NCBI RefSeq assembly: GCF_025753855.1
Contig: NZ_JAOWPT010000004.1
Span: forward strand, 167,871 to 231,870
DNA: 64,000 nucleotides
Direction of reading: 5' to 3'
Source: Mesorhizobium sp. ZC-5
Lineage (GTDB): Bacteria > Pseudomonadota > Alphaproteobacteria > Rhizobiales > Rhizobiaceae
Both the position numbers and the translations under genes were made by a program. Under the pieces are notes generated by a model. The model had not been told where the DNA came from. It saw nothing but the letters and a program-made list of their open reading frames with translations, and did no database searches. This document shows, piece by piece, positions 12,764 to 37,624 of this stretch (the first letter of the stretch is position 1; each line of letters begins with the position of its first letter).

Positions 12764-13822
12764 ATGAAACTCAGCCAGAGCATCCGGTTCTGCGCCTCAG
12801 CCGACGGCACCCGCATCGCCGTCGCGTCGTGCGGGGAAGGACCGGTGATCCTGCGGGCGGCGCACTGGCTGAGCCATGTCGACTACGATCTCGAAAGCCC
12901 GGTGTGGCGGCCGTGGCTTCAGGCGCTTTCGGCCCGCAACCGGTTCGTGCGTTACGATCCGCGCGGCTGCGGCCTGTCGGACCGGCATGTCGCTGACCTG
13001 TCGCTTGAGGCGTGGCACACCGACCTGGAGGCCGTGGCCGCGTCGATCGAGGAGCCGCGCTTCGTCCTCCTCGGTCTTTCGCAAGGCGGCGCGCTCGCCG
13101 TCGCATATGCGCTGAGGCATCCCGAGCGCGTATCGCATCTGGTGCTCCTGAATGCCTACGGTCGAGGTGGGCGAGTTCGGGCGCAGACGGATGCCGAGCG
13201 GCTGGAGGCCGAGACTCTGGTCAATTTCATTCGCATCGGCTGGGGGCGCGACAGTCCCGCGTTCTGCCAGTTCTTCACCAATCTCTTCATACCTGACGGA
13301 ACGCCAGAACAGCATCGCTGGTGGGGCGATCTCGAGCGCGTGACCGCAACCGCCGACGTTGCCGCGCAACTGCTCTGGCAGATGCAGGGGATCGACGTGC
13401 TTGACCTTGCCGCGCAGATCCGCGTCCCGACGCTGATCGCGCATTGCCGCGGCGACATGCGCGTCCCGTTTGACGAAGGCTGCAAGCTCGCAGCCGCGAT
13501 CCCGGGCGCGCGTTTCGTGCCGCTCGACAGCAAGAACCATGTGCTCTTGCCGGACGAACCGGCCTGGGGCGTGTTCCAGACCGAACTCGCCGCCTTCCTC
13601 GGGCAGGATCGGCCGAGGCAGCCGCGCGCGATCCGCGAGGCCGGTCTTACGCCCGCCGAGGCAGCGCTTCTGAACCTCGTCGCGGAAGGGCTCGACAACC
13701 GCTCGATCGCCGAGCGCCTCGGCAAGCGCGAGAAGACCGTCCGCAACCAGCTGTCGGTGATCTTCGGCAAACTCGGCGTCCACAACCGCTCGCAGGCGAT
13801 CGTCATGTCGCTTTCCGGATAA
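12764..13822 (+). CDS. Alpha/beta-hydrolase domain fused to a C-terminal LuxR-type HTH. Transcriptional regulator with an apparently intact hydrolase fold.
   Basis: Start at MKLSQSIRF. Nucleophile elbow GLSQGG (GxSxG). C-terminal LTPAEAALLNLVAEGLDNRSIAERLGKREKTVRNQLSVIFGKLGV matches the LuxR/FixJ HTH. Confidence 0.7.
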   Translation: MKLSQSIRFCASADGTRIAVASCGEGPVILRAAHWLSHVDYDLESPVWRPWLQALSARNRFVRYDPRGCGLSDRHVADLSLEAWHTDLEAVAASIEEPRFVLLGLSQGGALAVAYALRHPERVSHLVLLNAYGRGGRVRAQTDAERLEAETLVNFIRIGWGRDSPAFCQFFTNLFIPDGTPEQHRWWGDLERVTATADVAAQLLWQMQGIDVLDLAAQIRVPTLIAHCRGDMRVPFDEGCKLAAAIPGARFVPLDSKNHVLLPDEPAWGVFQTELAAFLGQDRPRQPRAIREAGLTPAEAALLNLVAEGLDNRSIAERLGKREKTVRNQLSVIFGKLGVHNRSQAIVMSLSG

Positions 13823-23558: not shown

Positions 23559-25016
23559 CTAGAGACCGAGGCCGCCGATGCAGACATATTTGGTGTCGAG
23601 ATAGTCCTCGATGCCTTGGTGGCCGCCTTCCTTGCCGAGGCCGGATTCCTTGACGCCGCCGAACGGCGCTTCCGGCGTGGTGATCAGGCCTTCGTTGACG
23701 CCGACCATGCCGTATTTCAGACCTTCCATGACCCGGAAGGCGCGGCCGAGGTCGCCGGTGTAGAAATAGCAAGCAAGGCCGAACTCGGTGTCGTTGGCAA
23801 GCCGCACCACCTCTTCCTCGCTCTCGAACTTGAACACCGGAGCGACGGGGCCGAAAATCTCTTCCTTCATGAACATCATGTCGGGTTTGGCGCCGGAAAT
23901 GACGGTCGGCTCGAAGAAGGAACCGCCGAGTGCATGGCGCTTGCCGCCGGTGACGACGGTGGCGCCCTTGGCCTTGGCGTCGGCCACGAATTCTTCCGTC
24001 TTCTGCGCCGCCTTCTCGTCGATCAGCGGTCCCTGCTGGGTGCCGTCCTCGAGGCCGGAGCCTACCTTCAGCTTCCTGGTGGCCTCGGCAAGCCGCTCGA
24101 CAAACTTGTCGTGGATGCCGGCCTGCACGAAGAACCGGTTGGTGCACACGCAGGTCTGGCCCGAGTTGCGGAACTTCGCCATCATGGCGCCCTCGACCGC
24201 CCTATCGAGATCGGCGTCGTCGAAAACGATGAAGGGGGCGTTGCCGCCGAGTTCCATCGATACCTTCTTGACGGTGGAAGCCGACTTCTCGATCAGCATC
24301 TTGCCGACCGGCGTCGAGCCGGTGAAGGTGATCTTCTTGACCAGCGGGTTGGCGCAGATCTCGTCGCCGATCTCGCCGGCCGCACCCGTCACGATGTTGA
24401 TGACGCCCTTGGGGATACCGACCTCCTCTGCCAGCACGCCCCAGGCGAGCGCCGAATACGGCGTCTGCGTCGCCGGCTTGACCACAGACGTGCAGCCCGC
24501 GGCGAGTGCGGGGCCGAGCTTGCGTGCCAGCATCGACGAGGGGAAATTCCACGGCGTGATCGCCGCGATGACGCCGACCGGCTCCTTGGTCACCATGATG
24601 CGGCGATCGGCCCACGGCGACGGCACCACGTCGCCATAGGTGCGGCGGCCTTCCTCGGCGAACCACAGGATGTACGCGGCCGACATGCCCACCTCGCCGC
24701 GCGCCTCGAACAGCGACTTGCCCTGCTCGGTGGTCAGGAGTTCGGCCAGCACATCCTGGTTGTCCATGATCGCGTCGTGCAGCTTGCGCAGCAATTTCGA
24801 GCGATCGAGCGCGGAGGTTTTCCGCCAGGTCAAAAATGCCTTGTCCGCCGCCTCGATGGCGCGGCGGGTCTCGGCAGCGCCGGATTTCGGCACGGTGCCG
24901 ATCTTGAGCCCGGTGGCCGGGTTGGTGACGTCGATGGTGGCGCCGCTATCGGCCTGCATCCACTCACCATTGATGAGGTTGGCCTGTTTCATGAAGTGGC
25001 TGGTTTTCTGGAGCAT
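23559..25016 (-). CDS. gabD: NAD(P)-dependent succinate-semialdehyde dehydrogenase (GabD-like ALDH)
   Basis: Near-colinear with E. coli GabD (ANLINGEW... VSLELGGNAPFIVFDDADLD... FRNSGQTCVC). RBS gggagg is 6 nt before the ATG at 25016. Confidence 0.85.
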   Translation of the reverse strand: MLQKTSHFMKQANLINGEWMQADSGATIDVTNPATGLKIGTVPKSGAAETRRAIEAADKAFLTWRKTSALDRSKLLRKLHDAIMDNQDVLAELLTTEQGKSLFEARGEVGMSAAYILWFAEEGRRTYGDVVPSPWADRRIMVTKEPVGVIAAITPWNFPSSMLARKLGPALAAGCTSVVKPATQTPYSALAWGVLAEEVGIPKGVINIVTGAAGEIGDEICANPLVKKITFTGSTPVGKMLIEKSASTVKKVSMELGGNAPFIVFDDADLDRAVEGAMMAKFRNSGQTCVCTNRFFVQAGIHDKFVERLAEATRKLKVGSGLEDGTQQGPLIDEKAAQKTEEFVADAKAKGATVVTGGKRHALGGSFFEPTVISGAKPDMMFMKEEIFGPVAPVFKFESEEEVVRLANDTEFGLACYFYTGDLGRAFRVMEGLKYGMVGVNEGLITTPEAPFGGVKESGLGKEGGHQGIEDYLDTKYVCIGGLGL

Positions 25017-25256
25017 TTTCTGCCTCCCTGGGCGGCGCCCGTGACGGGCGCGGATGGTTCGGATCCTCGGTTAACGCGCTCACAGGCCGGAGAGCCTCCC
25101 GCGCGCCACGCGCAAGCTCTTACCTTACGAAACGAGGTCCAAGCAACCGCGATCATGGGATTGTGATGGAGCAGTCTGCCCCTCCAGCGCAGCCCAAGTC
25201 AGCAACGATGGACGAAGCGCTCCGCCGCATATCCAGAATATCCATTAAATCTAGAA

Positions 25257-26012
25257 CTATCGCGGTATCAGCGTCGCGAAATTCTCGTCGATGGCGCGGT
25301 GCACGAGGCCGCTGTAATGCGCGTGGCATTCGTGGCCCTTCTCGATGCGGCCGAAGCTTGCCTTGCCGGCAAGCCGCTTCAGCGGCGCCAGCACGATCGG
25401 CGTCGACACAGGAAAGAGGTTGGTGCCCCTGCCCGACTGCAGCGTGGTCAAAAGGCCGAACATCTCGCCCGAAATGGTCGGCTTGGACACCACGATCAGC
25501 CGGTACTGGCCGAATTTGTTGGTGACCAGGTAGATGAAACCAGACTGGTGCGGGATCGAGACATGGCCCTGCTGGGTGAAGGCGGCGTCGATGCGTTCCG
25601 ATTCGGTGAAGACGAGATGCGAATGGTCGTCGTTCCAGCCGATCTCGGTCACATAGGCATAGATGGCGCCGGGGCTGGAGAATGATGGCCTGAGCGTCAG
25701 GTAGCCGCCTTCGATCCACGACACCGCCGGACGCGCATAGGAACCGAGTTCTTCCGGCGCCACGCCGTTAAGGCGGTCGGCGGCCCTCGCCTGGCTTTGC
25801 GGCCGCAACGCGACGCCGAGCGCCGTTTCCAGCCGCACGATGCTGGCCAGCGTGAACGGCCGCTGGCCGGACAGCGCCTTCTCCAGCGTCGACAGGCTGA
25901 TCTTCGCCTGGTCGGCGAGGAACTGCCTGGTGATGCGCTGCCTCGCCAGCGCCTCGCGCACGATGCCGGCAACCGTATCGTTCTCGGCGGCGGAAAGCGT
26001 CTGCTCGGTCAT
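25257..26012 (-). CDS. XRE-family HTH transcriptional regulator with a C-terminal domain of unknown function
   Basis: Start at MTEQTLSAAE. HTH region QFLADQAKISLSTLEKALSGQRPFTLASIVRLE. Divergent from the sortase-target operon. Confidence 0.6.
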   Translation of the reverse strand: MTEQTLSAAENDTVAGIVREALARQRITRQFLADQAKISLSTLEKALSGQRPFTLASIVRLETALGVALRPQSQARAADRLNGVAPEELGSYARPAVSWIEGGYLTLRPSFSSPGAIYAYVTEIGWNDDHSHLVFTESERIDAAFTQQGHVSIPHQSGFIYLVTNKFGQYRLIVVSKPTISGEMFGLLTTLQSGRGTNLFPVSTPIVLAPLKRLAGKASFGRIEKGHECHAHYSGLVHRAIDENFATLIPR

Positions 26013-26031
26013 CGGGAGATGTTGTGTGCGT

Positions 26032-26051
26032 ACATTTCCACACATTTCCAC
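26032..26051. promoter_or_regulatory. Tandem 10-bp direct repeats acatttccac x2 (a second pair, gatttgc x2, is at 26174-26193) in the XRE/sortase-target divergent promoter
   Basis: Low-GC stretch gtgcgtacatttccacacatttccacatcttg. Candidate operator. Confidence 0.3.
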
Positions 26052-26214
26052 ATCTTGTTTCCGGCAGCAATGCGGCACGGCGGAAACCGGCAAGACAAGG
26101 CCGAAGAAGACCGGACTTCCCGCTCGAATTCGAACGCAATCGGACCACAGATCGGTCCTCAGCCGCACACAATGATTTGCGCAGATTTGCACGGGTGCGG
26201 AGTGGGAGCCTGAC

Positions 26215-28362
26215 ATGAAACGATTGCTGATAACCTTCTTTGCCGTGCTTGCGACGGCCATCGCGGCGATGGCCGCGACCTTTGTAAAACCCAACGACAT
26301 GGGCACCGGGGCGCTGCTGTTCAAAAGCAACGAGCCCGGACAATTCGTCGAGGCGCCGCGCGTGGCGTCCGACTTCGACATTTCCGTCACCGGACAGATC
26401 GCCCGGACGCGGGTGACGCAGCAATTCCGCAACCCGGCGAAGGGTTGGGTCGAAGGCGTCTATGTCTTCCCGCTGCCCGAAAACGCCGCCGTCGACACGC
26501 TGAAGATGGTGATCGGCGACCGCGTCATCGTCGGCGACGTCAAGGAAAGGCAGGAAGCCAAGCGCATCTACGAACAGGCCAAGGCCAACGGCGAAAAGAC
26601 CGCCCTGCTGGAACAGGAGCGGCCGAACCTCTTCACCAACCAGGTCGCCAACATCGGCCCCGGCGAAACGATCGTCATCCAGATCGAATACCAGCAGCCG
26701 GTGCGCCAGTCGGGCGGCGTCTTCAGCCTGCGCGTGCCGATGGTGGTCGCCCCGCGCTACAATCCAGCGCCCGAACTCGTCGCTGCCGTGTCGGCCGACT
26801 CGGTCGAGATGTACACCGTTTCCGACCCGGTGCCGGATCGCCAGCGCATTGAGCCGCCGGTGCTCGACCCGCGCTCCAACGCGCCGGTCAACCCGATCAC
26901 CCTGGCGATCGACCTCAAGCCCGGCTTCGACCTCGGCGAGGTGAAAAGCTCGTATCACGATGTGAACGCGACGGGCGACGCATCCGCCAGGAAGATCTCT
27001 CTGAAGAACCCGGAATTTGCCGACCGCGATTTCGAACTGACCTGGGTCGCCAAGTCAGGCAAGGAACCGGCGGTCAGCCTGTTCAACGAAAAGGTGGCTG
27101 GCAACGATTATGCACTGCTGCAGATCACCCCGCCGGAACCGCAGGCTGAACAGAAGCGCCTGCCGCGCGAGGCGATCTTCGTCATCGACAATTCCGGCTC
27201 GATGGGCGGCCCTTCAATGGGCCAGGCCAAGGCGAGCCTCGTCTATGCGCTGGACCGGCTGGAGCCGGGCGACAAGTTCAACGTCATCCGTTTCGACGAC
27301 ACCATGGAGACGGTGTTCGCCCAAGCGGTCGAGGCGAGTCCGGAAAACATCAATTACGCCAGGAGCTTCGTCAACGCGCTTGAAGCGTCGGGCGGCACCG
27401 AGATGGTGGAGCCGCTGCGGGCTGCGCTCCGCGACAGCAATGCCGGGGATGGCTCGCTGCTTCGCCAGGTGGTGTTCCTCACCGACGGCGCCATCGGCAA
27501 CGAACAGCAGATGTTCGACCTCCTCGGCACCATGCGCGGCCGCTCCCGCGTGTTCATGGTCGGCATCGGCTCGGCGCCGAATTCCTTCCTGATGAACCGC
27601 ATGGCCGAACTCGGTCGCGGCAGCTTCACCCAGATCGGCGAAGGCGGCCAGGTCGAGCAGCGCATGCGCGAGCTGTTCGCCAAGCTCGAAAACCCGGTGG
27701 TCACCGAGCTGAAGGCAGCGGCGAGCGATGCCGCGATCGAAGTGACGCCTTCCACCTTGCCCGATCTGTACAAGGGTGAGCCGCTGACGCTGCTGGTCCG
27801 GGCGAAGGAGCTGAAAGGCGATATCGCCGTCTCTGGAATGGTCTCCGGCAGACCGTGGAGGCAGAATATCGCGCTCGACACCGCCGTCCCCGGCTCCGGC
27901 ATCTCGAAACTGTGGGCGCGCCGCAACATCGACGATGCGGAAGTGGCGCAAAGTCTTGGCCAGATCAGCCCGAGCGACGCCGACCGCCGCATCCTGGCGC
28001 TGGCGCTAGAGCATCATCTGGTCAGCCGGGTGACCAGCCTGGTCGCGGTCGACAAGACGCCGTCGCGCAAGCCCGGCGAGAAGCTGACCCGCACCGACGT
28101 GCCGCTCAACCTGCCCGCCGGCTGGGACTACGACAAGGTGTTCGGCGAGCAGAAACCCGTGCTGGAGCGCGAGGCGATGCTCGACCCAACGCTGATCGCC
28201 TCGACCAGGAATGCGCCCGCAGCGCAGTCGCCGGATGCGCAGCAGCAGATCGACCTGCCGCAGACGGCGACGCCTTCGCAACTGCTGATGATCGCCGGCG
28301 CGCTGATCATGGCGCTGGCGCTTCTCCTGCAATTCTGGTCACGCCGCACGAGGGTGGCATGA
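26215..28362 (+). CDS. Sortase substrate with a VIT domain, a vWA domain and a C-terminal LPQTA sorting signal (marine-proteobacterial sortase target family)
   Basis: Signal peptide MKRLLITFFAVLATAIAAMA. N-terminal VIT region. vWA MIDAS motif (DNSGSMGG ... TDG). C-terminus IDLPQTATPSQLLMIAGALIMALALLLQFWSRRTRVA is motif, then TM, then basic tail. Confidence 0.8.
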   Translation: MKRLLITFFAVLATAIAAMAATFVKPNDMGTGALLFKSNEPGQFVEAPRVASDFDISVTGQIARTRVTQQFRNPAKGWVEGVYVFPLPENAAVDTLKMVIGDRVIVGDVKERQEAKRIYEQAKANGEKTALLEQERPNLFTNQVANIGPGETIVIQIEYQQPVRQSGGVFSLRVPMVVAPRYNPAPELVAAVSADSVEMYTVSDPVPDRQRIEPPVLDPRSNAPVNPITLAIDLKPGFDLGEVKSSYHDVNATGDASARKISLKNPEFADRDFELTWVAKSGKEPAVSLFNEKVAGNDYALLQITPPEPQAEQKRLPREAIFVIDNSGSMGGPSMGQAKASLVYALDRLEPGDKFNVIRFDDTMETVFAQAVEASPENINYARSFVNALEASGGTEMVEPLRAALRDSNAGDGSLLRQVVFLTDGAIGNEQQMFDLLGTMRGRSRVFMVGIGSAPNSFLMNRMAELGRGSFTQIGEGGQVEQRMRELFAKLENPVVTELKAAASDAAIEVTPSTLPDLYKGEPLTLLVRAKELKGDIAVSGMVSGRPWRQNIALDTAVPGSGISKLWARRNIDDAEVAQSLGQISPSDADRRILALALEHHLVSRVTSLVAVDKTPSRKPGEKLTRTDVPLNLPAGWDYDKVFGEQKPVLEREAMLDPTLIASTRNAPAAQSPDAQQQIDLPQTATPSQLLMIAGALIMALALLLQFWSRRTRVA

Positions 28363-28955
28363 CCAGACGTCGATTGTTGAACCTGGGCGCGGCGGCAATC
28401 GCCGCGCTCGGGCTTACCATCTTCGCGCAAGGCGCATGGATCCAGGCCAAGGCGGTGCTGGCGCAATATCTGCTCGAGGACGCCTTTGCAGAAAGCGTCG
28501 CCACCGGCAGGCCGGTGAAGCCGTGGGATTGGGCCGACACCTGGCCCGTGGCAAAGATAGAAGTACCGAGCCTCGGCAGATCGGCGATTGCGCTCGCCGG
28601 GTCGAGCGGCCAGGCTCTGGCCTTCGGCCCGGGACATCTCGACCGCTCCGCCGAGCCCGGCGAACCCGGCACCACCGTCTATGCCGCCCATCGCGATACC
28701 CACTTCGCCTTCCTCGGCGCGGTGAAGGTCGGCGACGCGATCGAGGTGACCCGCGCCGACGGCCGGACGTTCATCTACCAGACGACCGGCAGCGAGATCG
28801 TGCGCTGGGACAATTCAGGCATCAGCACCGACGCGCGCGGCGCGCAGCTCGCACTCGTCACCTGCTGGCCGCTCGACGGCAAGACGCGCGGCCCCCTGCG
28901 CTACGTCGTCCACGCCACCTTGAAAGAAGGAGCAAAAATTGCGGAAGCACGCTAA
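28359..28955 (+). CDS. Sortase (proteobacterial, GN/class-6-like)
   Basis: ATG overlaps the target stop (gtggcATGAcc). N-terminal TM. Catalytic His (YAAHRDTHF), Cys (LVTCWP) and Arg (RYVVHA). Confidence 0.8.
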   Translation: MTRRRLLNLGAAAIAALGLTIFAQGAWIQAKAVLAQYLLEDAFAESVATGRPVKPWDWADTWPVAKIEVPSLGRSAIALAGSSGQALAFGPGHLDRSAEPGEPGTTVYAAHRDTHFAFLGAVKVGDAIEVTRADGRTFIYQTTGSEIVRWDNSGISTDARGAQLALVTCWPLDGKTRGPLRYVVHATLKEGAKIAEAR

Positions 28956-29902
28956 CCGAACACTGCCTGCGCCACCGCCAGCCAGAACGCGGTGGACACC
29001 ACCGCGCACGCTGTGGCGATCGTCATCTGGTTCGATGCCAATGCCTGGCCGGTGCCGAACTGCATGGCGATCAGATAGGAGTTGACGCCCGACGGTAGCG
29101 CAGCCGCCGCCACCGCCACCTTTGCCGGAAGCGGCGGCAGGCCAAGCAGCCAGGCCATGCCGAGCGCCACCGCTGGCATCAGGAACAGTTTCAGGAACGA
29201 CAGCACGACTGCCGGGCGGACATTTCCGGAAATCCCGAATTTCCTCAATCCAAGCCCCATCGCGAACAGCGCGAGCGGTGCTGCGATATCGGCCAGCGCG
29301 TCGACGAAGCGGGCAGCCAGCACAGGCAGCGGAATGCCGGTCATGCTCCACAGCAGCCCGGCAACAATGCCGAGGATCAGCGGGTTGGTGCCGATCTTGC
29401 GCAGGAAATCGCGAATCATCGCGGCCGGATGCAGCCCGCCATTCTTCTCGCGCCCGAAAATCTCGAACAGGATGATGGAGGCCATCATCATCGTCGGCAG
29501 ATGCACGGCGATGATAAGGGAGAGTATCTCGAAACCCTGCTGCCCGAAAACGCCGAGCATGAATGGGGTGCCGAGCAGCACCAGGTTGGAAAACGCCGTG
29601 GCGACGCCGCCGACGACACCGGCCTGCCCGTCGCGCCCGAAGATGCGGGTGATGGCCAGATGCCCGGCGGTCCAGGCAACGATCACCGCGGTGAAATAGG
29701 TCGTCCACAGCGCCCAGGGCGCGGCGCCGTGAAAATCGGCGCTGACCATGGTGCGGAAGAGCAGCAGCGGCAGCGCCACGCCGACCGCGAAGGCCGAGAG
29801 CGCGTCGCCCGTTTCGGTACGCAGATAACCGGTCAGGCCAGCCAGGTAGCCGAGCGCAACGAGGCCGAAGACGAAAAGCACTGTTTCGAAGAGCGGAGAC
29901 AT
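28952..29902 (-). CDS. AEC-family (auxin efflux carrier / MdcF-like) transporter
   Basis: 316 aa, about 10 TM segments, membrane-transport family signature. Confidence 0.75.
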   Translation of the reverse strand: MSPLFETVLFVFGLVALGYLAGLTGYLRTETGDALSAFAVGVALPLLLFRTMVSADFHGAAPWALWTTYFTAVIVAWTAGHLAITRIFGRDGQAGVVGGVATAFSNLVLLGTPFMLGVFGQQGFEILSLIIAVHLPTMMMASIILFEIFGREKNGGLHPAAMIRDFLRKIGTNPLILGIVAGLLWSMTGIPLPVLAARFVDALADIAAPLALFAMGLGLRKFGISGNVRPAVVLSFLKLFLMPAVALGMAWLLGLPPLPAKVAVAAAALPSGVNSYLIAMQFGTGQALASNQMTIATACAVVSTAFWLAVAQAVFG

Positions 29903-30135
29903 GCGCCGCTCTTAGCGCATGCCTTCCGAAACCGGAAACCGGTTTTCGAAGCATTGTCGATCGGACAAAATGTCAAAACATGCAAACTGCATGTTTGAGG
30001 GCCTTCAAAACTCCCCGGGAACATACGACCTGTATGAAATTGTCGGCCCGGTGGCGCGCTTTGATGTCCTGAGCGCAGGCGGGTTGTTTTTCATCCCGCT
30101 TTCCCTTCCCTATATCGGGACCGGGAGGAATTTGG

Positions 30136-30690
30136 ATGCTTCGACTGGCCGCGACCCTGTTCGCGCTTCTTCTGCTGACACCGGCCCACGCCACGGAAGC
30201 CGGCTGGGCGTTGCTGCGCGACGGCGGCCACGTCGTGCTGTTGCGGCACGCCACGGTCACCGGCAGCGCCGATTCGGCGGGCTTCGACATCGAGAAATGT
30301 GCCAGCCAGCAGAAGCTGTCGGAGCGCGGCAAGCAGCAGGCGCGCAAGATCGGCGCACTGTTTGCGACGCGCGCCGCCCCCATCGAGCGCGTCCTGTCGA
30401 GTCGTTATTGTCGGGCTGTCGACACCGCCGACATCGCCTTCCGGGACAACGACGCCGAAAAGTTCGAGCCGCTCGACCTGCTCTCGAAGGACCCGGAGAA
30501 AGCCGCGGCGCAGAACGCCGCCGTCATCAAGGAAGTCGGCGACTACACCGGCGACGGCAATCTGGTGCTCGTCACCCATCTCGAAAACATCATGGCGCTG
30601 ACCGGCGCCGGTGCCCGTGAAGGCGAGGCGGTGATCGTCGGCCTCGACGGCGAGAAACTGCGTGTACTCGGCCGCATCATCTTCAACTGA
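30136..30690 (+). CDS. Histidine-phosphatase (PGAM/SixA-like) family protein with a signal peptide
   Basis: RBS gggagg. Signal peptide MLRLAATLFALLLLTPAHA. Catalytic motif LLRHA (an RHG variant). Confidence 0.7.
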   Translation: MLRLAATLFALLLLTPAHATEAGWALLRDGGHVVLLRHATVTGSADSAGFDIEKCASQQKLSERGKQQARKIGALFATRAAPIERVLSSRYCRAVDTADIAFRDNDAEKFEPLDLLSKDPEKAAAQNAAVIKEVGDYTGDGNLVLVTHLENIMALTGAGAREGEAVIVGLDGEKLRVLGRIIFN

Positions 30691-30937
30691 AAGCCCTTCG
30701 GTGCCAGCCGATGGGCGTTGTTTTGCGGGCTGCGCGAATGTTGCCTAAATGCAACCACCACAAGAAGCCGCACTTCCGCCACGACAATGCCGCTTGCGAC
30801 AACCCGCCGCAGGGGCTATAGGCGCGCTCCCGGTCACGAAAGCCGGAGCGAGCACAACGGTTGGAGCTTTCGTCTCCGCCCGCGCAGGCGGCATTGCCGG
30901 CCCTGTGTACGGCGCCGCTTCGGAGGTCGGATAGGGC

Positions 30938-31011
30938 GCGGATGTAGCTCAGTCTGGAAGAGCGCCGGATTGCGTATCCGGAGGTCGCAGGTTCGAATCC
31001 TGCTGTTCGAG
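30938..31011 (+). tRNA. tRNA-like sequence 1. It has canonical D- and T-arms but a non-pairing acceptor stem, so it is a possible pseudogene. The anticodon loop reads TTGCGTA.
   Basis: TAGCTCAGTCTGGAAGAGC D-arm, CCGGA-TTGCGTA-TCCGG anticodon arm and GCAGGTTCGAATCCTGC T-arm are all present. The 5' GCGGATG does not pair with the 3' TGTTCGA. Confidence 0.4.
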
Positions 31012-31015
31012 CCCA

Positions 31016-31089
31016 CCACGGATAGCTCAGTTGGGTAGAGCATCAGACTTATAATCTGACTGTCGAAGGTTCGAATCCTTCTCCATTGG
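31016..31089 (+). tRNA. tRNA-like sequence 2. It has canonical arms and an anticodon loop CTTATAA (anticodon UAU). The acceptor stem has 2 mismatches.
   Basis: CCACGGA-TA-GCTCAGTTGGGTAGAGC-A-TCAGACTTATAATCTGA-CTGTC-GAAGGTTCGAATCCTTC-TCCATTG. No CCA is encoded. Confidence 0.4.
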
Positions 31090-31427
31090 CCTGAAAAGCC
31101 AGCACCCTTTTAAGGTGTCCATCTGAACGACGGTCCGGGGACTGGAATGCGGAAGGCCTGACGACGGGCTCCAAGCCTGCGGGCAAGGAATTCGACCGAT
31201 GGCCTGATGCCGTCCCTCTGCGGCCAGGCCCGCGGTGATGGCCAAGACGCATGCCCGCCGGCAACGGAGCGTCGCTCCAGCGCCCGCCCGCATGCCTCGC
31301 GGCCCGCTCCCGCTGGCCCGCCTCGGAAGGATGCCACCGGTCCCCGGATCTTTCATGCCCGGGACGCGAAACAGAACGAAAGGACGATCGACGCATGACT
31401 TAGCCATGCCCGACAGGAGTGAAGAAC

Positions 31428-32573
31428 ATGATGACCATTCTCGACAAGGTTCTTGGACGCCAGCGCGTCCTCGTAAAGGAAAACGAACGTGCGATCGCCC
31501 TCTACAAGGGCGAGATGCTGGGCATTCTCGGCCCGGGCGAACATGCTTTGCCCAACCGCCGCAACCGCCTCGACATCTTCCGGCACGATCTGAAGAGCCC
31601 GGAATTCGTTTCGGCGTTCGAGAAGGCGTTGTTCGACAAGCTCCCGGACGTGGCGGCGCGTCATTTGACGGTGTTCCGCACCAGCCGCACTGAAGTAGCC
31701 GTGGTCGAGCGGGACGCACAGATCCACACGGTTCTGGGTCCGGACCGCAAGCTTTCGGTGTGGACGGATGCTGGTCCGTGGACGTCGACCGTGGTCGACA
31801 TCTCGGAAGGACTGACCGTTGATGCAGCCCTGCTGCGCCGGCTCGTGCTGGCCAGCAAGGCGAACGTCGTGACGACGTCCTACGTTGCGGAAGGCTATGC
31901 CGGCCTGCTGTTCGTGGATGGCGTGTATGTCGAAACGCTGGCGCCGGGCGCGCACGGCTTCTGGAACACCGGCCGTTCAGTGCTCGTGAAGCTCGTCGAC
32001 CTGAAGCGCCAGTCGCTCGACGTGGCCGGACAGGAGATGCTGACCAAGGATCGCGTGACGATCCGCGTCAACATCGCCGCCGACTACCGCGTCGTCGACC
32101 CGCTGAAGGCGGTGGCGACGGTGAAGGACTTCTCCGAAGCCCTCTACCGTGCGCTGCAGTTCGCCTTCCGCAAGACGCTTGGCGCCCTGACGCTTGATCA
32201 GATCCTTGAAAAGAAGGTGACGGTCGACGAAGAGGCGGCAGGCAAGGTGCGCGCCGACATGGCCGAGATCGGCGTCGAGGTTTCCGATATCGCCCTCAAG
32301 GATGTTATCCTGCCGGGCGAGATGCGCGAGATCCTCAACCAGGTGGTCGCGGCCGAAAAGCAGGCCGAGGCCAACGTCATCCGCCGCCGCGAGGAGACGA
32401 ACGCAACGCGTTCCCTGCTCAACACGGCGAAGGTGATGGCCGAGAACCCGGTGATGCTGCGCCTGAAGGAGCTCGAGGCGCTGGAAACCATCGCCGGCAA
32501 GGTCGAGCGTCTGACGGTCCACAACGGCACCGGCGGGCTCTTGAACGACCTGGTGAAGCTCCGCGACCAGTGA
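31428..32573 (+). CDS. SPFH/band-7 (stomatin/slipin-like) domain protein
   Basis: RBS aggag is 9 nt upstream of the ATG. Band-7 core (TKDRVTIRVNIAADYRVVDPLKAV...) followed by a coiled-coil tail. Confidence 0.8.
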   Translation: MMTILDKVLGRQRVLVKENERAIALYKGEMLGILGPGEHALPNRRNRLDIFRHDLKSPEFVSAFEKALFDKLPDVAARHLTVFRTSRTEVAVVERDAQIHTVLGPDRKLSVWTDAGPWTSTVVDISEGLTVDAALLRRLVLASKANVVTTSYVAEGYAGLLFVDGVYVETLAPGAHGFWNTGRSVLVKLVDLKRQSLDVAGQEMLTKDRVTIRVNIAADYRVVDPLKAVATVKDFSEALYRALQFAFRKTLGALTLDQILEKKVTVDEEAAGKVRADMAEIGVEVSDIALKDVILPGEMREILNQVVAAEKQAEANVIRRREETNATRSLLNTAKVMAENPVMLRLKELEALETIAGKVERLTVHNGTGGLLNDLVKLRDQ

Positions 32574-32747
32574 GCATCCAAAGCAACAAGAAGGGCCGTC
32601 CGTTTGCACGGACGGCCCTTCGTTTCTATCTGTTTAGCGCCGCTGGCCGGCAGGCGGGAGCATTTCGCCCTTTTCCTGCAAGGCAAAACCGATTAGAGAG
32701 CCCGACAAACTTCATCCTTGAATCCGACCCTATCGAGGGAATTGCCT

Positions 32748-33032
32748 GTGTCCACCACATTTGAAAAAGTTGCGAAAATCATTGCCGATACCAGCGAGAT
32801 CGATATCGATTCGATCACGCCGGAGAGCCATACGATCGATGACCTCGGTATCGACAGCCTCGATTTCCTCGACATCGTGTTCGCCATCGACAAGGAATTC
32901 GGCATCAAGGTGCCGCTCGAAAAGTGGACCCAGGAAGTCAATGATGGCAAGGTCTCGACGGAAGAGTACTTCGTCATGAAGAACCTCTGCGCCAAGATCG
33001 ACGCCCTCGTCGCCGCCAAGAACGCCGTCTGA
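32748..33032 (+). CDS. acpXL: Specialised acyl carrier protein for the lipid A very-long-chain fatty acid
   Basis: GTG start ([19 protein letters not shown]...). Phosphopantetheine site [14 protein letters not shown]. First gene of the acpXL-fabF2XL-fabF1XL-adh-lpxXL set. Confidence 0.8.
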
Positions 33033-33065
33033 CCGGCGTTTCCAGCCGAACAACCACGGACAACC

Positions 33066-34253
33066 ATGAGCGCCCGCGACGTCGTCATCACCGGCATCGG
33101 CCTCGTCTCATCGCTTGGCGAAGGCGCCGACGCGCACTGGCAAAAACTGTCGGTGCCGGGCGTCAAGCCGGTTGTCGACGAAGCGCGCTACGCGCCCTAC
33201 ACCGTGCATCCGCTGCCCGAAATCGACTGGAGCCTGCAGATCGCCAAGCGCGGCGACCAGCGCCAGATGGAAAACTGGCAGCGGCTCGGCACCTATACGG
33301 CGGGCCTCGCGCTCGACGATGCCGGGGTGAAGGGCGACGAAGCGCTCTGCTCCACCATGGACATGATCGTCGCCGCCGGCGGCGGCGAACGCGACGAGGC
33401 GGTGGATCAGGGCATTCTCGATGCCTCGGCCACCCGCAACGACCGTGACGTCCTGCTCAACGAAAAGCTCACCACCGAGCTTCGCCCGACGCTTTTCCTG
33501 GCGCAGCTTTCCAACCTGCTGGCCGGCAACATCTCCATCGTCCACAAGGTAACGGGATCCTCGCGCACCTTCATGGGCGAAGAAGGCGCCGGCATCTCGG
33601 CGGTCGAGACGGCCGCCGCACGCATCCGCTCGGGCCGCTCGACCCATGCGCTGGTGGGGGGTGCCTTCCAGACAGAGCACTCCGACATGCTGCTGGCCTA
33701 TGAACTCGCCGGCTATCTGCATCGCGGCGCCTGGAAATCCGTGTGGGAGCGCAAGCGCTCCGAAGGTGGCGGTGTCGTCACCGGCTCGGGTGCGGCATTC
33801 CTCGTGCTGGAATCGCGCGAACATGCGCAAAAGCGCGGGCGCGATGTATACGCGGCGCTGGGTCCAGTCGCTTCGGGGCGCCACCAGCGTTCCGGCGACG
33901 GGTTGTCGACCGCGGTGACCGACCTCGTCAGGGCGACGGGCATTCCGGCCGGCCGACTGCTGGCGCTCTCCGGCGCTTCGGGTGCCCATGCGGCGACCGC
34001 TGCCGAAAAGGCGGCGCTCGCCGCGGCCGGGGAAATTGCCGTGCGCGGCGTCTCGACGGTTACCGGCCATTTGAAAGAGGCACAGTTCCCGTTCGCCATC
34101 GCGCTGGCGGCGCTCGCCGTGAAGAACCGCGCCGGCTATCCGGCCTTCGACGGCGCCAACGAGCCGGCCTTCGACGGCGCGCCCGAGGCTGCACTCGCCA
34201 CCGCGATCGGCTACCATCGCTTCGAAGGCGCGGCGCTCATCAGCCGAGCGTAA
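33066..34253 (+). CDS. fabF2XL: Beta-ketoacyl-ACP synthase-like protein (KAS / chain-length-factor type)
   Basis: 395 aa thiolase-fold KAS homologue directly after acpXL. Confidence 0.7.
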   Translation: MSARDVVITGIGLVSSLGEGADAHWQKLSVPGVKPVVDEARYAPYTVHPLPEIDWSLQIAKRGDQRQMENWQRLGTYTAGLALDDAGVKGDEALCSTMDMIVAAGGGERDEAVDQGILDASATRNDRDVLLNEKLTTELRPTLFLAQLSNLLAGNISIVHKVTGSSRTFMGEEGAGISAVETAAARIRSGRSTHALVGGAFQTEHSDMLLAYELAGYLHRGAWKSVWERKRSEGGGVVTGSGAAFLVLESREHAQKRGRDVYAALGPVASGRHQRSGDGLSTAVTDLVRATGIPAGRLLALSGASGAHAATAAEKAALAAAGEIAVRGVSTVTGHLKEAQFPFAIALAALAVKNRAGYPAFDGANEPAFDGAPEAALATAIGYHRFEGAALISRA

Positions 34254-34272
34254 GCGCGCAAAGGAAAAGGTC

Positions 34273-35544
34273 ATGGCAAGAACCAAAGACCATCTCGGCA
34301 GGCCGGTCGTGGCCGTCACCGGCATCGGCGTCGTCACTTCGCTCGGCATCGGCAAGAAAGACAATTGGGCGGCCCTAACCTCGGGGCGCTCCGGCATTCA
34401 TCCGATCACGCGCTTTCCTGTCGATCACATGAACACCCGCATCGCTGGTACCGTCGATTTTCTCGGCTCGAGCGACAAGGGCGCGACCGCCCTCACCTAC
34501 GAACTGGCGGAAACGTCGGCCCGCGAGGCGCTCGACGAAGCCGGTTTCACCAACGGCCATTTCGCCGGTCCGCTGTTTCTCGCCTCGCCGCCGGTCGAGA
34601 TGGACTGGCACGACCGTTTTGCGCTCTACAATTCGGTCAGCGAACCCGAGGGTTACCAGCGCCTGCTCACCGTCGGCCGCAATTTGCAGACGCATGAGAT
34701 CTTCGAATCCACGCAATTCGGCTCGATCGCCGACCGGCTCGCCGATCGCTTCGGCACGCAGGGCCTGCCGGTGACGCTGTCGACGGCCTGCGCCTCGGGC
34801 GCCACCGCGATCCAGCTTGGCGTCGAGGCGATCCAGCGCGGTGAGACCGATCGCGCCATCGCCATCGGCGCAGACGGCTCGGCGACCGCCGAGGCGCTGA
34901 TCCGTTTCTCGCTGCTGTCGGCGCTATCGACCAGCAACGACAACCCGGAACGGGCCTCCAAGCCGTTCTCGAAGGACCGCGACGGTTTCGTGCTTGCCGA
35001 AGGTTCGGCGGCACTGGTGCTGGAATCGCTCGAAAGCGCCGAGGCGCGCGGCGCCACGATACTCGGCATCATGCGCGGCTGCGGCGAGCGCGCGGACGAT
35101 TTCCACCGCACCCGCTCGAAGCCGGACGGTTCGCCGGCCATCGCCGCCGTGAAGGCGGCGCTGGCCGACGCCGGCCTCCGCGACGACGAGATCGACTATG
35201 TCAACGCGCACGGCACTTCGACGCCGGAAAACGACAAGATGGAGCATCTGTCGCTGTCGACGGTGTTCGGCGAGCGCATCCGTTCGATCCCGGTATCGTC
35301 GAACAAATCTATGATCGGCCACACGCTCTCGGCGGCGGGTGCCATCGAGGCGGCCTTCTCGCTGCTGACCATGCGCGAAGGCGTCATCCCCCCGACCATC
35401 AACTACGACAACCCCGATCCGGCGATCGAGCTCGACGTGGTGCCCAACGTCAAGCGCGAGGCCAAGGTGCGCACCGTGCTTTCCAATTCGTTCGGTTTCG
35501 GCGGCCAGAACACCTGCCTTGTCATGGCGCGGGAACCGGTCTAA
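34273..35544 (+). CDS. fabF1XL: 3-oxoacyl-ACP synthase II (FabF-like)
   Basis: Active-site Cys context (STACASGATAIQ) and C-terminal GHTLSAAGAIE / NSFGFGGQN. Confidence 0.8.
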   Translation: MARTKDHLGRPVVAVTGIGVVTSLGIGKKDNWAALTSGRSGIHPITRFPVDHMNTRIAGTVDFLGSSDKGATALTYELAETSAREALDEAGFTNGHFAGPLFLASPPVEMDWHDRFALYNSVSEPEGYQRLLTVGRNLQTHEIFESTQFGSIADRLADRFGTQGLPVTLSTACASGATAIQLGVEAIQRGETDRAIAIGADGSATAEALIRFSLLSALSTSNDNPERASKPFSKDRDGFVLAEGSAALVLESLESAEARGATILGIMRGCGERADDFHRTRSKPDGSPAIAAVKAALADAGLRDDEIDYVNAHGTSTPENDKMEHLSLSTVFGERIRSIPVSSNKSMIGHTLSAAGAIEAAFSLLTMREGVIPPTINYDNPDPAIELDVVPNVKREAKVRTVLSNSFGFGGQNTCLVMAREPV

Positions 35545-35578
35545 GCGACCGGTTCCGATCGCCATTTCAGGAAAAACA

Positions 35579-36607
35579 ATGCGTGCATTGCAACTCGTCG
35601 AGGACCGCAAGCTCGAGATCGTCGATCTCGCGCCGCCGTCGGCACCCGAACGCGGCGAAGTCACGCTGCGCATCAAGGCGGTGGCGCTGAACCACATCGA
35701 TGTCTGGGGCTGGCGCGGCATGGCCTTCGCCAAGCGCAAGATGCCGCTGGTCATCGGCGCCGAGGCCTCCGGCGAGGTCGATGCCGTCGGCCCGGGCGTC
35801 TCTAACCTGCTGCCCGGCCAACTGGTTTCCATCTACGGCGCCCGCACCTGCGGGCTGTGCCGTCCCTGCCGCGAAGGTCGCGACAATCTCTGCGAACATG
35901 TTTCGGGCGTGCACGGCTTCCATCTGGACGGTTTTGCCCAGGAGAAGATCAATCTCCCGGCAAGATTGCTGGTCCCTGCCCCACCCGGTGTCAGCGATAT
36001 CGCGGCGGCTGTCGCCCCGGTCACCTTCGGCACTGTCGAGCACATGCTGTTCGACAATGCGAAATTGCAGCCCGGCGAGACGATCCTCGTGCATGCCGGC
36101 GGTTCCGGCATCGGCTCGGCGGCGATCCAGCTTGCCAAGCGCATGGGCTGCACCGTCATCACAACGGTCGGTTCGGATGCCAAGATCGAGAAGGCCAAGG
36201 CGCTTGGCGCCGACCATGTCATCAACTACCGCGAGGACCGCTTCGAGGGCGTGGTGCGCAAGCTGACGAGAAAAAAGGGCGTCGACGTCGTATTCGAGCA
36301 TGTCGGCGCGGATACCTGGGCCGGCTCCATGCTTTGCATGAAGCGTGGCGGGCGCCTGGTCACCTGCGGTTCGACATCCGGCGTCTCGACTCAGATGAAC
36401 CTGATGCAGCTCTTCCAGCAGCAGTTGAAGATCCTCGGCTCGTTCGGCTGCCGCATGGAGAACATGGCCGACGCCATGCAGAAGATGGCGGCAGGCATCG
36501 TCAGCCCGGTGATCGACACCGAAACGGGTTTCGACGACATCGACACGGCGCTGAAACGCATGGAAGGCCGCGACGTCTTCGGCAAGATCATCCTGCGGGT
36601 GAACTGA
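35579..36607 (+). CDS. Zinc-binding alcohol dehydrogenase / MDR-family oxidoreductase of the acpXL cluster
   Basis: Start at MRALQLVED. GroES-like and Rossmann motifs (GGSGIGSAAIQLAK). Confidence 0.8.
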   Translation: MRALQLVEDRKLEIVDLAPPSAPERGEVTLRIKAVALNHIDVWGWRGMAFAKRKMPLVIGAEASGEVDAVGPGVSNLLPGQLVSIYGARTCGLCRPCREGRDNLCEHVSGVHGFHLDGFAQEKINLPARLLVPAPPGVSDIAAAVAPVTFGTVEHMLFDNAKLQPGETILVHAGGSGIGSAAIQLAKRMGCTVITTVGSDAKIEKAKALGADHVINYREDRFEGVVRKLTRKKGVDVVFEHVGADTWAGSMLCMKRGGRLVTCGSTSGVSTQMNLMQLFQQQLKILGSFGCRMENMADAMQKMAAGIVSPVIDTETGFDDIDTALKRMEGRDVFGKIILRVN

Positions 36608-36667
36608 CGCCATGATCCCGAAGCGCGGGACTCGGTCTTCGGACTCGATCACGGTTGGCAAGAACTG

Positions 36668-37624
36668 ATGCGGCCAATCATCGCGAAATTGCTGCAAGGC
36701 CTGAAACAGCTGAATTACTGGCTGGTCGCCCAGCTGGCGCTGGCCGTGCTGACCGTGCTGCGCCTGCTGCCGCCGGACAAGGCTCTGAACTTCGCCGACC
36801 GCGCGGCCCGGAAAGTCGGCCCGTGGATCGGTCGCCATCGGGTCGCTCTCGACAATCTCAGGAAAGCCTATCCCGAGAAGACCGAGGCCGAGATCGAAGC
36901 GATCGCGCTCGACATGTGGGGCAACATGGCCCGGCTCGGTGCTGAATACATCTTTCTCGACCAACTGTTCGATTACGTGCCGGATGTACGCACCGATGGC
37001 CGAATCGAGGTTTCCGGCAAGGAAACATTCCTCAAGCTGGCAGCCGAAAAAGACCGGCCGCACATTATCTTCACTGGCCATCTCGGCAATTTCGAGCTGC
37101 TCCCGGTGGCGGGCGCGGCCTTCGGGCTCGCCGTCACCGCGATGTTTCGCCCGCCGAACAATCCCTACATCGCCGAATATGTGTTCTCGACGCGGCAGTC
37201 GAAGATGGGCGGGCTGCTGGCCTCGCGCGCCGGCGCAGCCTTCGCGCTGGCCCGCATCCTCGAGGCCGGCGGCAATATCGGCGTGCTGGTCGACCAGAAG
37301 TTCCAGTACGGCATCCGGACGCAATTTTTCGGTCGCGAATGCGAAACGAGCCCCTTGGTGCCGAAACTCGCCAAGCAATATGACTGCGACGTTTACCCGG
37401 CCCGCTGCATTAGATTGCCTGGCAACAGGTTCCGGTTGATTCTTCAGGAAAGACTCGAATTGCCCCGCACCGGTGACGGCCAGGTCGACGTGGCCGCGAC
37501 CGCGCAGGTTCTGACCGATATTGTTGAAGGATGGGTGCGCGAAGATCCGGGGCAGTGGATGTGGTTCCACAAGCGCTGGAACATCACTCCGCCGAAGCCG
37601 AATCGCGCCAAACGCGCCGCTTAG
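36668..37624 (+). CDS. lpxXL: Lipid A biosynthesis very-long-chain acyltransferase (HtrB/MsbB family)
   Basis: 318 aa LpxL-family protein (...IFTGHLGNFELL...), last gene of the cluster. Confidence 0.8.
   Translation: MRPIIAKLLQGLKQLNYWLVAQLALAVLTVLRLLPPDKALNFADRAARKVGPWIGRHRVALDNLRKAYPEKTEAEIEAIALDMWGNMARLGAEYIFLDQLFDYVPDVRTDGRIEVSGKETFLKLAAEKDRPHIIFTGHLGNFELLPVAGAAFGLAVTAMFRPPNNPYIAEYVFSTRQSKMGGLLASRAGAAFALARILEAGGNIGVLVDQKFQYGIRTQFFGRECETSPLVPKLAKQYDCDVYPARCIRLPGNRFRLILQERLELPRTGDGQVDVAATAQVLTDIVEGWVREDPGQWMWFHKRWNITPPKPNRAKRAA

Follow-up and report, generated by a model that had tools for sequence, protein, structure and literature searches.

We analysed a 64,000-nt stretch of the Mesorhizobium sp. 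ZC-5 genome (contig NZ_JAOWPT010000004.1, positions 167,871 to 231,870 of the forward strand; hereafter the window), in which three genes at 25257..28955 form a module: a divergently transcribed regulator, a VIT-vWA protein with a C-terminal sorting signal, and a sortase. This module probably represents an alphaproteobacterial variant of the proteobacterial dedicated sortase (PDS) system, with a wall-attached target and an operon under the control of the divergent regulator, and is probably an old but dispensable resident of the chromosome. Judged by sequence, the sortase and its target are real members of the known PDS family at equivalog level, because both proteins exceed the curated NCBIfam equivalog cut-offs.

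The canonical system of Shewanella (SO2192-SO2196) comprises five genes, encoding the two-component system PdsS/PdsR (renamed PghK/PghR), the OmpA-like protein PdsO, the VIT-vWA target and the class GN sortase (bioRxiv 10.1101/2023.05.05.539549; PMC11580497). The window module does not belong to this five-gene form, as PdsO, PdsS (TIGR03785) and PdsR (TIGR03787) were not found beside it. Likewise, none of the three was detected near the module or at the 80 alphaproteobacterial loci listed in our species scan (one genome per species), around which no gene family other than the target, the sortase and a 250-aa regulator was conserved. Histidine kinases near some of the loci (Methylobacterium, Caulobacter and a Rhizobium metagenome-assembled genome, MAG) were considered as PdsS candidates and rejected as generic, given scores of 74-82 bits against a TIGR03785 cut-off of 612. 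In the window itself, no kinase or response regulator was seen among the 20 genes tested beyond the module, a scan that was not exhaustive. We did not find the minimal alphaproteobacterial architecture, with its dedicated XRE-barrel regulator and repeat array, described in the literature; the novelty of the locus is modest and lies in these three features.

The sortase and its target

The sortase gene (28359..28955, + strand) encodes a 198-aa protein that matches the NCBIfam model TIGR03784, 'class GN sortase', with 202.7 bits against a cut-off of 158.25 and over profile positions 3-174 of 174. The first-pass annotation, made from the letters alone, had proposed a dedicated pair of the TIGR03784/TIGR03788 type and would have given it up had this reading frame shown no sortase fold; the Pfam Sortase family was matched at 95.8 bits. 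The motifs AAHRDT, LVTCWP and RYVVHA contribute His111, Cys169 and Arg181, the putative catalytic triad, and hydropathy revealed a single hydrophobic segment at the N-terminus (residues 5-24), the predicted membrane anchor. The best match in the PDB was 2LN7, a class D sortase of Bacillus anthracis, with HRDT, TC.P and RY aligned. A class D model was also the runner-up in NCBIfam ('class D sortase, LPxTATN-specific'), and its motif resembles the LPQTAT of the target; the window sortase stays below the class D cut-offs, with 80 bits against 140 (NF058671) and 74 against 165. Assignment to class GN is thus backed by score, by fold and triad, and, on the genome side within the window, by a gene that adjoins a single LPXTG-type target.

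The target gene (26215..28362, + strand) encodes 715 aa and matches TIGR03788 at 800 bits (cut-off 551.65) over profile positions 2-629 of 629. In keeping with this family, the protein combines a Sec-type signal peptide (residues 1 to ~21), a VIT domain (53-159), a vWA domain (321-470) and a C-terminal LPXTG-type signal; the Pfam scores were 126 bits for VIT, 64 for VWA_3 and 24.3 for Gram_pos_anchor (cut-off 20). The metal ion-dependent adhesion site (MIDAS) is intact, its residues D325, S327, S329, T395 and D424 being invariant across a 33-sequence alignment. Among solved structures, the target is closest to the human ITIH4 (E = 1.5e-31) and ITIH1 heavy chains and to PARP4.

The tripartite sorting signal (28255..28362, + strand) is the only one among the ORFs of the window. 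The C-terminus reads ...IDLPQTATPSQLLMIAGALIMALALLLQFWSRRTRVA, in which LPQTA occupies residues 681-685 (nt 28255-28269), followed by a hydrophobic helix at ~689-708 and the basic tail RRTRVA. By hydropathy, hydrophobic 19-mers are confined to residues 1-26, the signal peptide, and 685-710, the C-terminal helix. The TGA of the target and the ATG of the sortase share 4 nt (gtggcATGAcc; sortase start at 28359), and through this ATGA overlap the sortase is predicted to be translationally coupled to its target; the operon consists of these two genes only. Gene layout, catalytic motifs, overlap and C-terminal elements were all found where the first-pass annotation had placed them.

We also asked how well the sorting motif is kept, a lack of conservation having been named in advance as grounds for abandoning the proposed pair. 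Among the 120 closest homologues of the target, 103 retain LPxTA, and the remaining 17 carry LP[EQA][GA][GA]T at the same position. These Gly/Ala variants, which include the homologues P0007, P0009, P0026, P0030 and P0062, are odd for a sortase substrate. Because 17 of 120 homologues are without the scissile Thr and three such loci keep their sortase, the chemistry may depart from canonical LPXT|G cleavage.

The divergent regulator and its candidate operator

The regulator gene (25257..26012, - strand, ATG at 26012) encodes a 251-aa one-component protein with an N-terminal helix-turn-helix (HTH) domain of the XRE/Cro type (residues ~8-65) and a C-terminal eight-stranded beta-barrel (~100-225). 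An AlphaFold model with a mean confidence score (pLDDT) of 78 predicts the same order, an XRE-type HTH followed by the barrel. The Pfam HTH_3 score of the protein itself, 21.7, lies below the gathering threshold of 23; the XRE assignment, which should be read as a prediction, rests on the modelled fold and on homologues that pass this threshold. No Pfam or NCBIfam model spans the barrel. Hydropathy revealed no hydrophobic segment, and the regulator is therefore predicted to be cytoplasmic. The family is strongly conserved across its full length.

Of 81 alphaproteobacterial loci, comprising the 80 of the species scan and one further locus (L002), 53 have a regulator homologue divergently upstream of the target, from Mesorhizobium to Caulobacter and sphingomonads, and three, all in Methylobacterium, have it downstream of the sortase. 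In the remaining 25, no regulator was present in the fetched flanks (≤ 10 kb on each side). The association also holds in the reverse direction. When 80 metagenomic loci were picked via the regulator, the target was divergently adjacent in 49, the contig was too short in 17, and no module was found in 14, i.e. the target adjoins the regulator in 49 of 63 informative loci. The orphan regulators shared no alternative divergent partner. The genomic association between regulator and module thus appears strong, as the first-pass annotation had surmised in calling the regulator the module's own, and not obligate, because loci of both kinds exist: 25/81 modules without a regulator and 14/63 regulators without a module. 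In the regulator-less loci we looked for another conserved partner, and the neighbours (aminotransferase, MocR-like regulator, GST, PQQ dehydrogenase, peptidases) followed no pattern.

The barrel domain is rare. A search with residues 85-251 returned 410 clusters (50% identity, E ≤ 1e-3) among 1.84 billion representatives, and most of the proteins recovered are ~250 aa long and consist of HTH and barrel. In a few other relatives (P0383, P0472, P0423, P0436 and P0440 among the proteins concerned) the barrel lies C-terminal to a TIR or nucleotide-cyclase domain, or in ~700-aa proteins without a Pfam hit, which suggests a shuffled sensor or oligomerisation module. A defence-system reading was discarded: PADLOC gave weak HTH matches for the regulator only, and nothing for the sortase or the target.

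Regulator and target are separated by a 202-bp control region (26013..26214; 56.9% GC). A repeat search detected an operator-like tandem direct repeat at 26027..26053 (+ strand), with two exact copies of ACATTTCCAC at 26032-26051, 20 bp from the regulator ATG. The consensus array comprises three CCGCACA repeats in 10-bp phase, CCGCACAAttCCgCACAtAnCCGCAC, located 20-40 bp from the regulator ATG; the third repeat was revealed by conserved positions outside the search pattern. CACA-N6-CACA was present in 52 of 98 distinct regulator-target intergenic regions, always in one orientation (reverse orientation, 0), compared with an average of 0.46 and a maximum of 4 in shuffled regions. Importantly, 36 of the 53 loci that have a divergent regulator contain the motif, and the 28 that have none all lack it. 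On this comparative evidence the array resembles a binding site of the regulator, and we refer to it as a candidate operator.

A GCACA-type element of the same region occurs as a perfect 9-nt inverted copy (CGCACACAA / TTGTGTGCG; 26164-26172 versus 26022-26030). This copy lies ~45 bp upstream of the target ATG and 133 nt from the repeat array, and could offer the regulator another site close to the promoter of the target.

Could the HTH gene be a mere neighbour, with repeats that serve only its own promoter or leader and no part in controlling the sortase operon? The loci that lack a regulator would fit this explanation, as would the informative regulator loci with neither a nearby module nor a common alternative partner, and the repeats lie close to the regulator start and 160-190 bp from the target ATG. 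However, although all other neighbours change between Mesorhizobium and Caulobacter, Brevundimonas or sphingomonads, the divergent arrangement is retained, it is also kept on a plasmid, and in Methylobacterium the regulator has been relocated yet still adjoins the sortase. We regard a mere neighbour as very unlikely.

For the control of the pair in Alphaproteobacteria we tentatively propose, as a possibility that we rate below an even chance, that a small uncurated one-component family (XRE HTH plus avidin- or lipocalin-like barrel) takes this role instead of PdsS/PdsR. It would bind the three CCGCACA repeats, and its barrel would detect a small molecule in the cytoplasm, for instance a product of cell-wall turnover or a nucleotide signal. 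If true, this would couple the state of the wall to its covalent decoration with a vWA protein.

Distribution and history of the module

The pair was found in at least 80 alphaproteobacterial species genomes, including many of Bradyrhizobium, and others of Rhizobium, Ensifer, Pararhizobium, Phyllobacterium, Ochrobactrum, Methylobacterium, Caulobacter, Brevundimonas, Parvibaculum, sphingomonads and Hyphomonadaceae. In 79 of the 80 species loci listed, the gene that directly follows the target is the sortase; in the remaining one, the contig ends first. Homologues of the target number thousands, the closest named ones belonging to Mesorhizobium, Taklimakanibacter, Nordella, Parvibaculaceae, Inquilinus, Labrys, Phyllobacterium and Rhodoplanes. 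Fourteen alphaproteobacterial plasmids or chromids carry the pair, among them the 57-kb plasmid pOANT04 of Brucella anthropi, on which an HTH regulator, a target and a class GN sortase are annotated by PGAP in the order seen here. RefSeq annotates the pair automatically.

The view that such pairs are mostly marine and gamma-proteobacterial, repeated in the first-pass annotation, is outdated: they are widespread in Alphaproteobacteria of soil and rhizosphere. As cited in PMC8225981, Comfort and Clubb already listed Bradyrhizobium japonicum in 2004 as a Gram-negative with one sortase and one substrate. SMc01580 of S. meliloti and an Ensifer homologue appear under the name 'marine proteobacterial sortase target protein' in symbiosis-related expression tables (PMC6637203).

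Two further assumptions, that the module was acquired horizontally and that its promoter is low in GC, found no support. The module has a GC content of 0.647-0.670 and, at third codon positions (GC3), of 0.81-0.86, equal to its neighbours (GC 0.63-0.68; GC3 0.81-0.89), so that composition gives no signal of horizontal transfer; at 57% GC, the intergenic region is within the range of other intergenic regions of the window (0.51-0.64). The nearest relatives of the target are from an uncultured alphaproteobacterial MAG (91%) and Mesorhizobium sp. ASY16-5R (76%). In four loci, i.e. the window, two MAGs (~91% identical) and ASY16-5R, the module sits between the genes of an AEC transporter and SSADH, inside an otherwise conserved block with PutA at one end and the acpXL cluster at the other. 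Aminobacter anthyllidis, Mesorhizobium sp. NBSH29 and Mesorhizobium sp. M9A lack the module at this AEC|SSADH junction: their two flanking genes are separated by 140-202 bp that retain no trace of it.

Comparison of ASY16-5R with the window gave 76, 76 and 68% identity for the module proteins and 83, 76 and 65% for the flank proteins. ASY16-5R is as far from the window as the empty-site genomes are (SSADH, 83% versus 85-87%; AEC, 76% versus 74-82%). Because the junction is identical and the divergence of the module matches that of its flanks, vertical descent with repeated loss is favoured, and the simplest history is that of an old resident at the AEC|SSADH junction that was cleanly lost several times.

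A recently acquired horizontal island, which brought its own regulator and a low-GC promoter along, would account for the empty junctions in the three genomes named above, for the unrelated genomic contexts of the module in other genera and for its presence on plasmids and chromids, and two odd tRNA genes lie ~2 kb away. Against it stand GC and GC3 values that match the flanking housekeeping genes, the ordinary intergenic GC, and the lack of any integrase, transposase or flanking repeat among the neighbours tested. The identical junction in the more distant ASY16-5R, with divergence like that of the flanks, also fits less well with independent insertions at one site. We consider such an island unlikely. 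The module is accessory and dispensable and elsewhere can be carried on plasmids, and its recent acquisition here is unsupported.

In the MAG closest to the window (L004), a duplicated 3' fragment of the AEC gene (residues 271-316, 85% identity) lies at 13362-13499, between the sortase and the intact AEC gene, beside a DUF982 gene and a small HTH gene that are both missing from the window. This arrangement looks like a local insertion scar.

The window flanks contain SSADH, the AEC transporter, a histidine-phosphatase-family protein, a Band-7 protein and an acpXL/lpxXL-type lipid A cluster. Two abutting tRNA genes (30938-31011 and 31016-31089, + strand; Rfam 53.6 and 61.7 bits), ~2 kb from the sortase, separate the histidine-phosphatase gene from the Band-7 gene and are the only RNA elements that Rfam detected at 24500-32000. 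ARAGORN assigned the anticodons Arg(GCG) and Ile(TAT), which are unusual for bacteria. A similar odd pair occupies the same place in ASY16-5R; Mesorhizobium sp. M9A has Leu(TAG) and one unassignable tRNA there, and four other relatives have none. The acpXL/lpxXL-type cluster (32574-37624) encodes an acyl carrier protein, two beta-ketoacyl-ACP synthases, a Zn-dependent dehydrogenase and a lipid A acyltransferase, and it is by this pathway that rhizobia provide lipid A with its very-long-chain fatty acid. The sortase thus has an envelope-related cluster ~4 kb away, a linkage confined to this genus group. In Bradyrhizobium, an AMP-binding enzyme and an acyl-CoA synthetase-like protein adjoin the pair; we rejected them as parts of the system, as they reflect the synteny of that genus.

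Proposed function and comparison with known systems

We envisage that Sec exports the target, which stays anchored in the inner membrane through its C-terminal helix. The periplasm-facing sortase would then cut between Thr684 and Ala685, forming a thioacyl intermediate on Cys169, and pass the Thr carboxyl to an amine. The nearest characterised relatives, sortases of classes D and E, use the side chain of meso-diaminopimelate (e.g. SrtC of Bacillus anthracis), and by analogy the likeliest acceptor would be this side chain in peptidoglycan or lipid II. The product would be a VIT-vWA protein covalently fixed to the wall in the periplasm, its MIDAS free for metal-dependent ligand binding. We thus infer, from these analogues, covalent attachment to peptidoglycan; a role in adhesion or host interaction is speculation. 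By binding to the repeats, the regulator would adjust operon transcription according to a small molecule bound in its beta-barrel.

Several observations argue against parts of this scheme. No cleavage or target transfer has been reported for any diderm sortase, and deletion of the structural genes in Shewanella left ampicillin resistance unchanged (bioRxiv 10.1101/2023.05.05.539549). Gly or Ala replaces the scissile Thr in ~14% of close homologues (LPEGGT, LPQGAT, LPAAAT), and three species loci with LPQGAT (L027, L040 and L067) retain the downstream sortase. On the regulatory side, a scan of 25900-26300 found neither a sigma-70 promoter consensus nor a terminator, confidence in the regulator model is moderate, and the regulator is missing from some loci and occurs away from any module in others, as described above.

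These points bear on another explanation, in which the sortase makes no attachment to peptidoglycan. It would act as a processing or release protease, the acyl-enzyme being hydrolysed so that the VIT-vWA protein is set free in the periplasm or for secretion, or it would ligate the target to a different acceptor such as a protein of the outer membrane, a lipoprotein or a second target molecule. This explanation would be in line with the fact that no acceptor has been established in any diderm, with the homologues that lack the canonical Thr, with the deletion in Shewanella that gave no phenotype, and with a canonical system that adds the OmpA-like PdsO, which is not part of the window module. 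Moreover, VIT-vWA homologues elsewhere in bacteria carry GlyGly-CTERM or PEP-CTERM tails, which are processed by non-sortase enzymes, and the conserved feature may be removal of the anchor rather than linkage to the wall (PMC3237569). In contrast, the His-Cys-Arg transpeptidase triad is intact, and the enzyme most resembles the class D sortases, whose substrates become attached to the wall. For characterised sortases, hydrolysis is only a minor side activity, which also counts against release. On balance, we think that release or another acceptor is rather unlikely, and prefer attachment to the wall.

The role of sortases in outer-membrane bacteria has been open since the genes were noticed in 2001-2004, and this locus leaves the question unchanged. 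What it adds is the picture of a system that is common, yet dispensable, among Alphaproteobacteria of soil and rhizosphere and that exists there in a minimal form, two genes plus a regulator. The likely dedicated regulator and its candidate operator offer an experimental handle in genetically tractable rhizobia. The practical value of the window locus is limited, since Sinorhizobium, Bradyrhizobium, Caulobacter relatives and Shewanella already serve equally.

Among the known systems, the ITIH1 and ITIH4 chains share with the target the combination of VIT and vWA with a MIDAS. They also become covalently joined via the C-terminus to a glycan; unlike the proposed linkage, this is an ester to chondroitin or hyaluronan that involves no sortase, and it is found on extracellular proteins of eukaryotes. 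The rhombosortase/GlyGly-CTERM and exosortase/PEP-CTERM versions likewise combine a VIT-vWA passenger, a tripartite C-terminal signal and a dedicated enzyme (PMC3237569), whereas their motifs and enzyme classes are unrelated, a rhomboid protease or exosortase taking the place of the cysteine transpeptidase.

Class D sortases of Bacillus (B. anthracis SrtC, 2LN7; LPNTA or LPxTATN substrates) are the best structural and sequence match to the window enzyme. Both sides have an Ala-containing motif (LPQTAT and LPxTATN) and few, dedicated substrates. In contrast to these enzymes, the window sortase belongs to a diderm host, is predicted to face the periplasm, and has a VIT-vWA protein as its substrate. 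The pairs of the Bradyrhizobium japonicum and SMc01580 type are the same two-gene pair in Rhizobiales and do not differ in kind; the loci of Rhizobium, Ensifer and Pararhizobium lack the regulator in the fetched flanks, whereas the window locus has it.

The closest functional reference is Shewanella. Its three structural genes are induced > 17-fold by ampicillin or by loss of PBP1a, through the adjacent two-component system, which senses peptidoglycan damage (bioRxiv 10.1101/2023.05.05.539549), and an S. algae strain with the pdsS mutation G547W overexpresses them 126- to 799-fold (PMC11580497). The statement in the first-pass annotation that dedicated pairs have essentially no experimental characterisation in Gram-negatives thus still applies to the biochemistry in diderms and should otherwise be qualified, given this induction by beta-lactams and peptidoglycan damage and the deletion without a change in ampicillin resistance. 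The sortases and targets of the two systems are orthologous (TIGR03784 and TIGR03788), and both follow the rule of one enzyme and one substrate, encoded by adjacent genes, with an LPxTG-type tail. They differ in what surrounds the pair: Shewanella has a divergent two-component system and PdsO as the first gene of the operon, whereas in the window the divergent position is taken by a predicted cytoplasmic regulator that joins an XRE domain to a beta-barrel.

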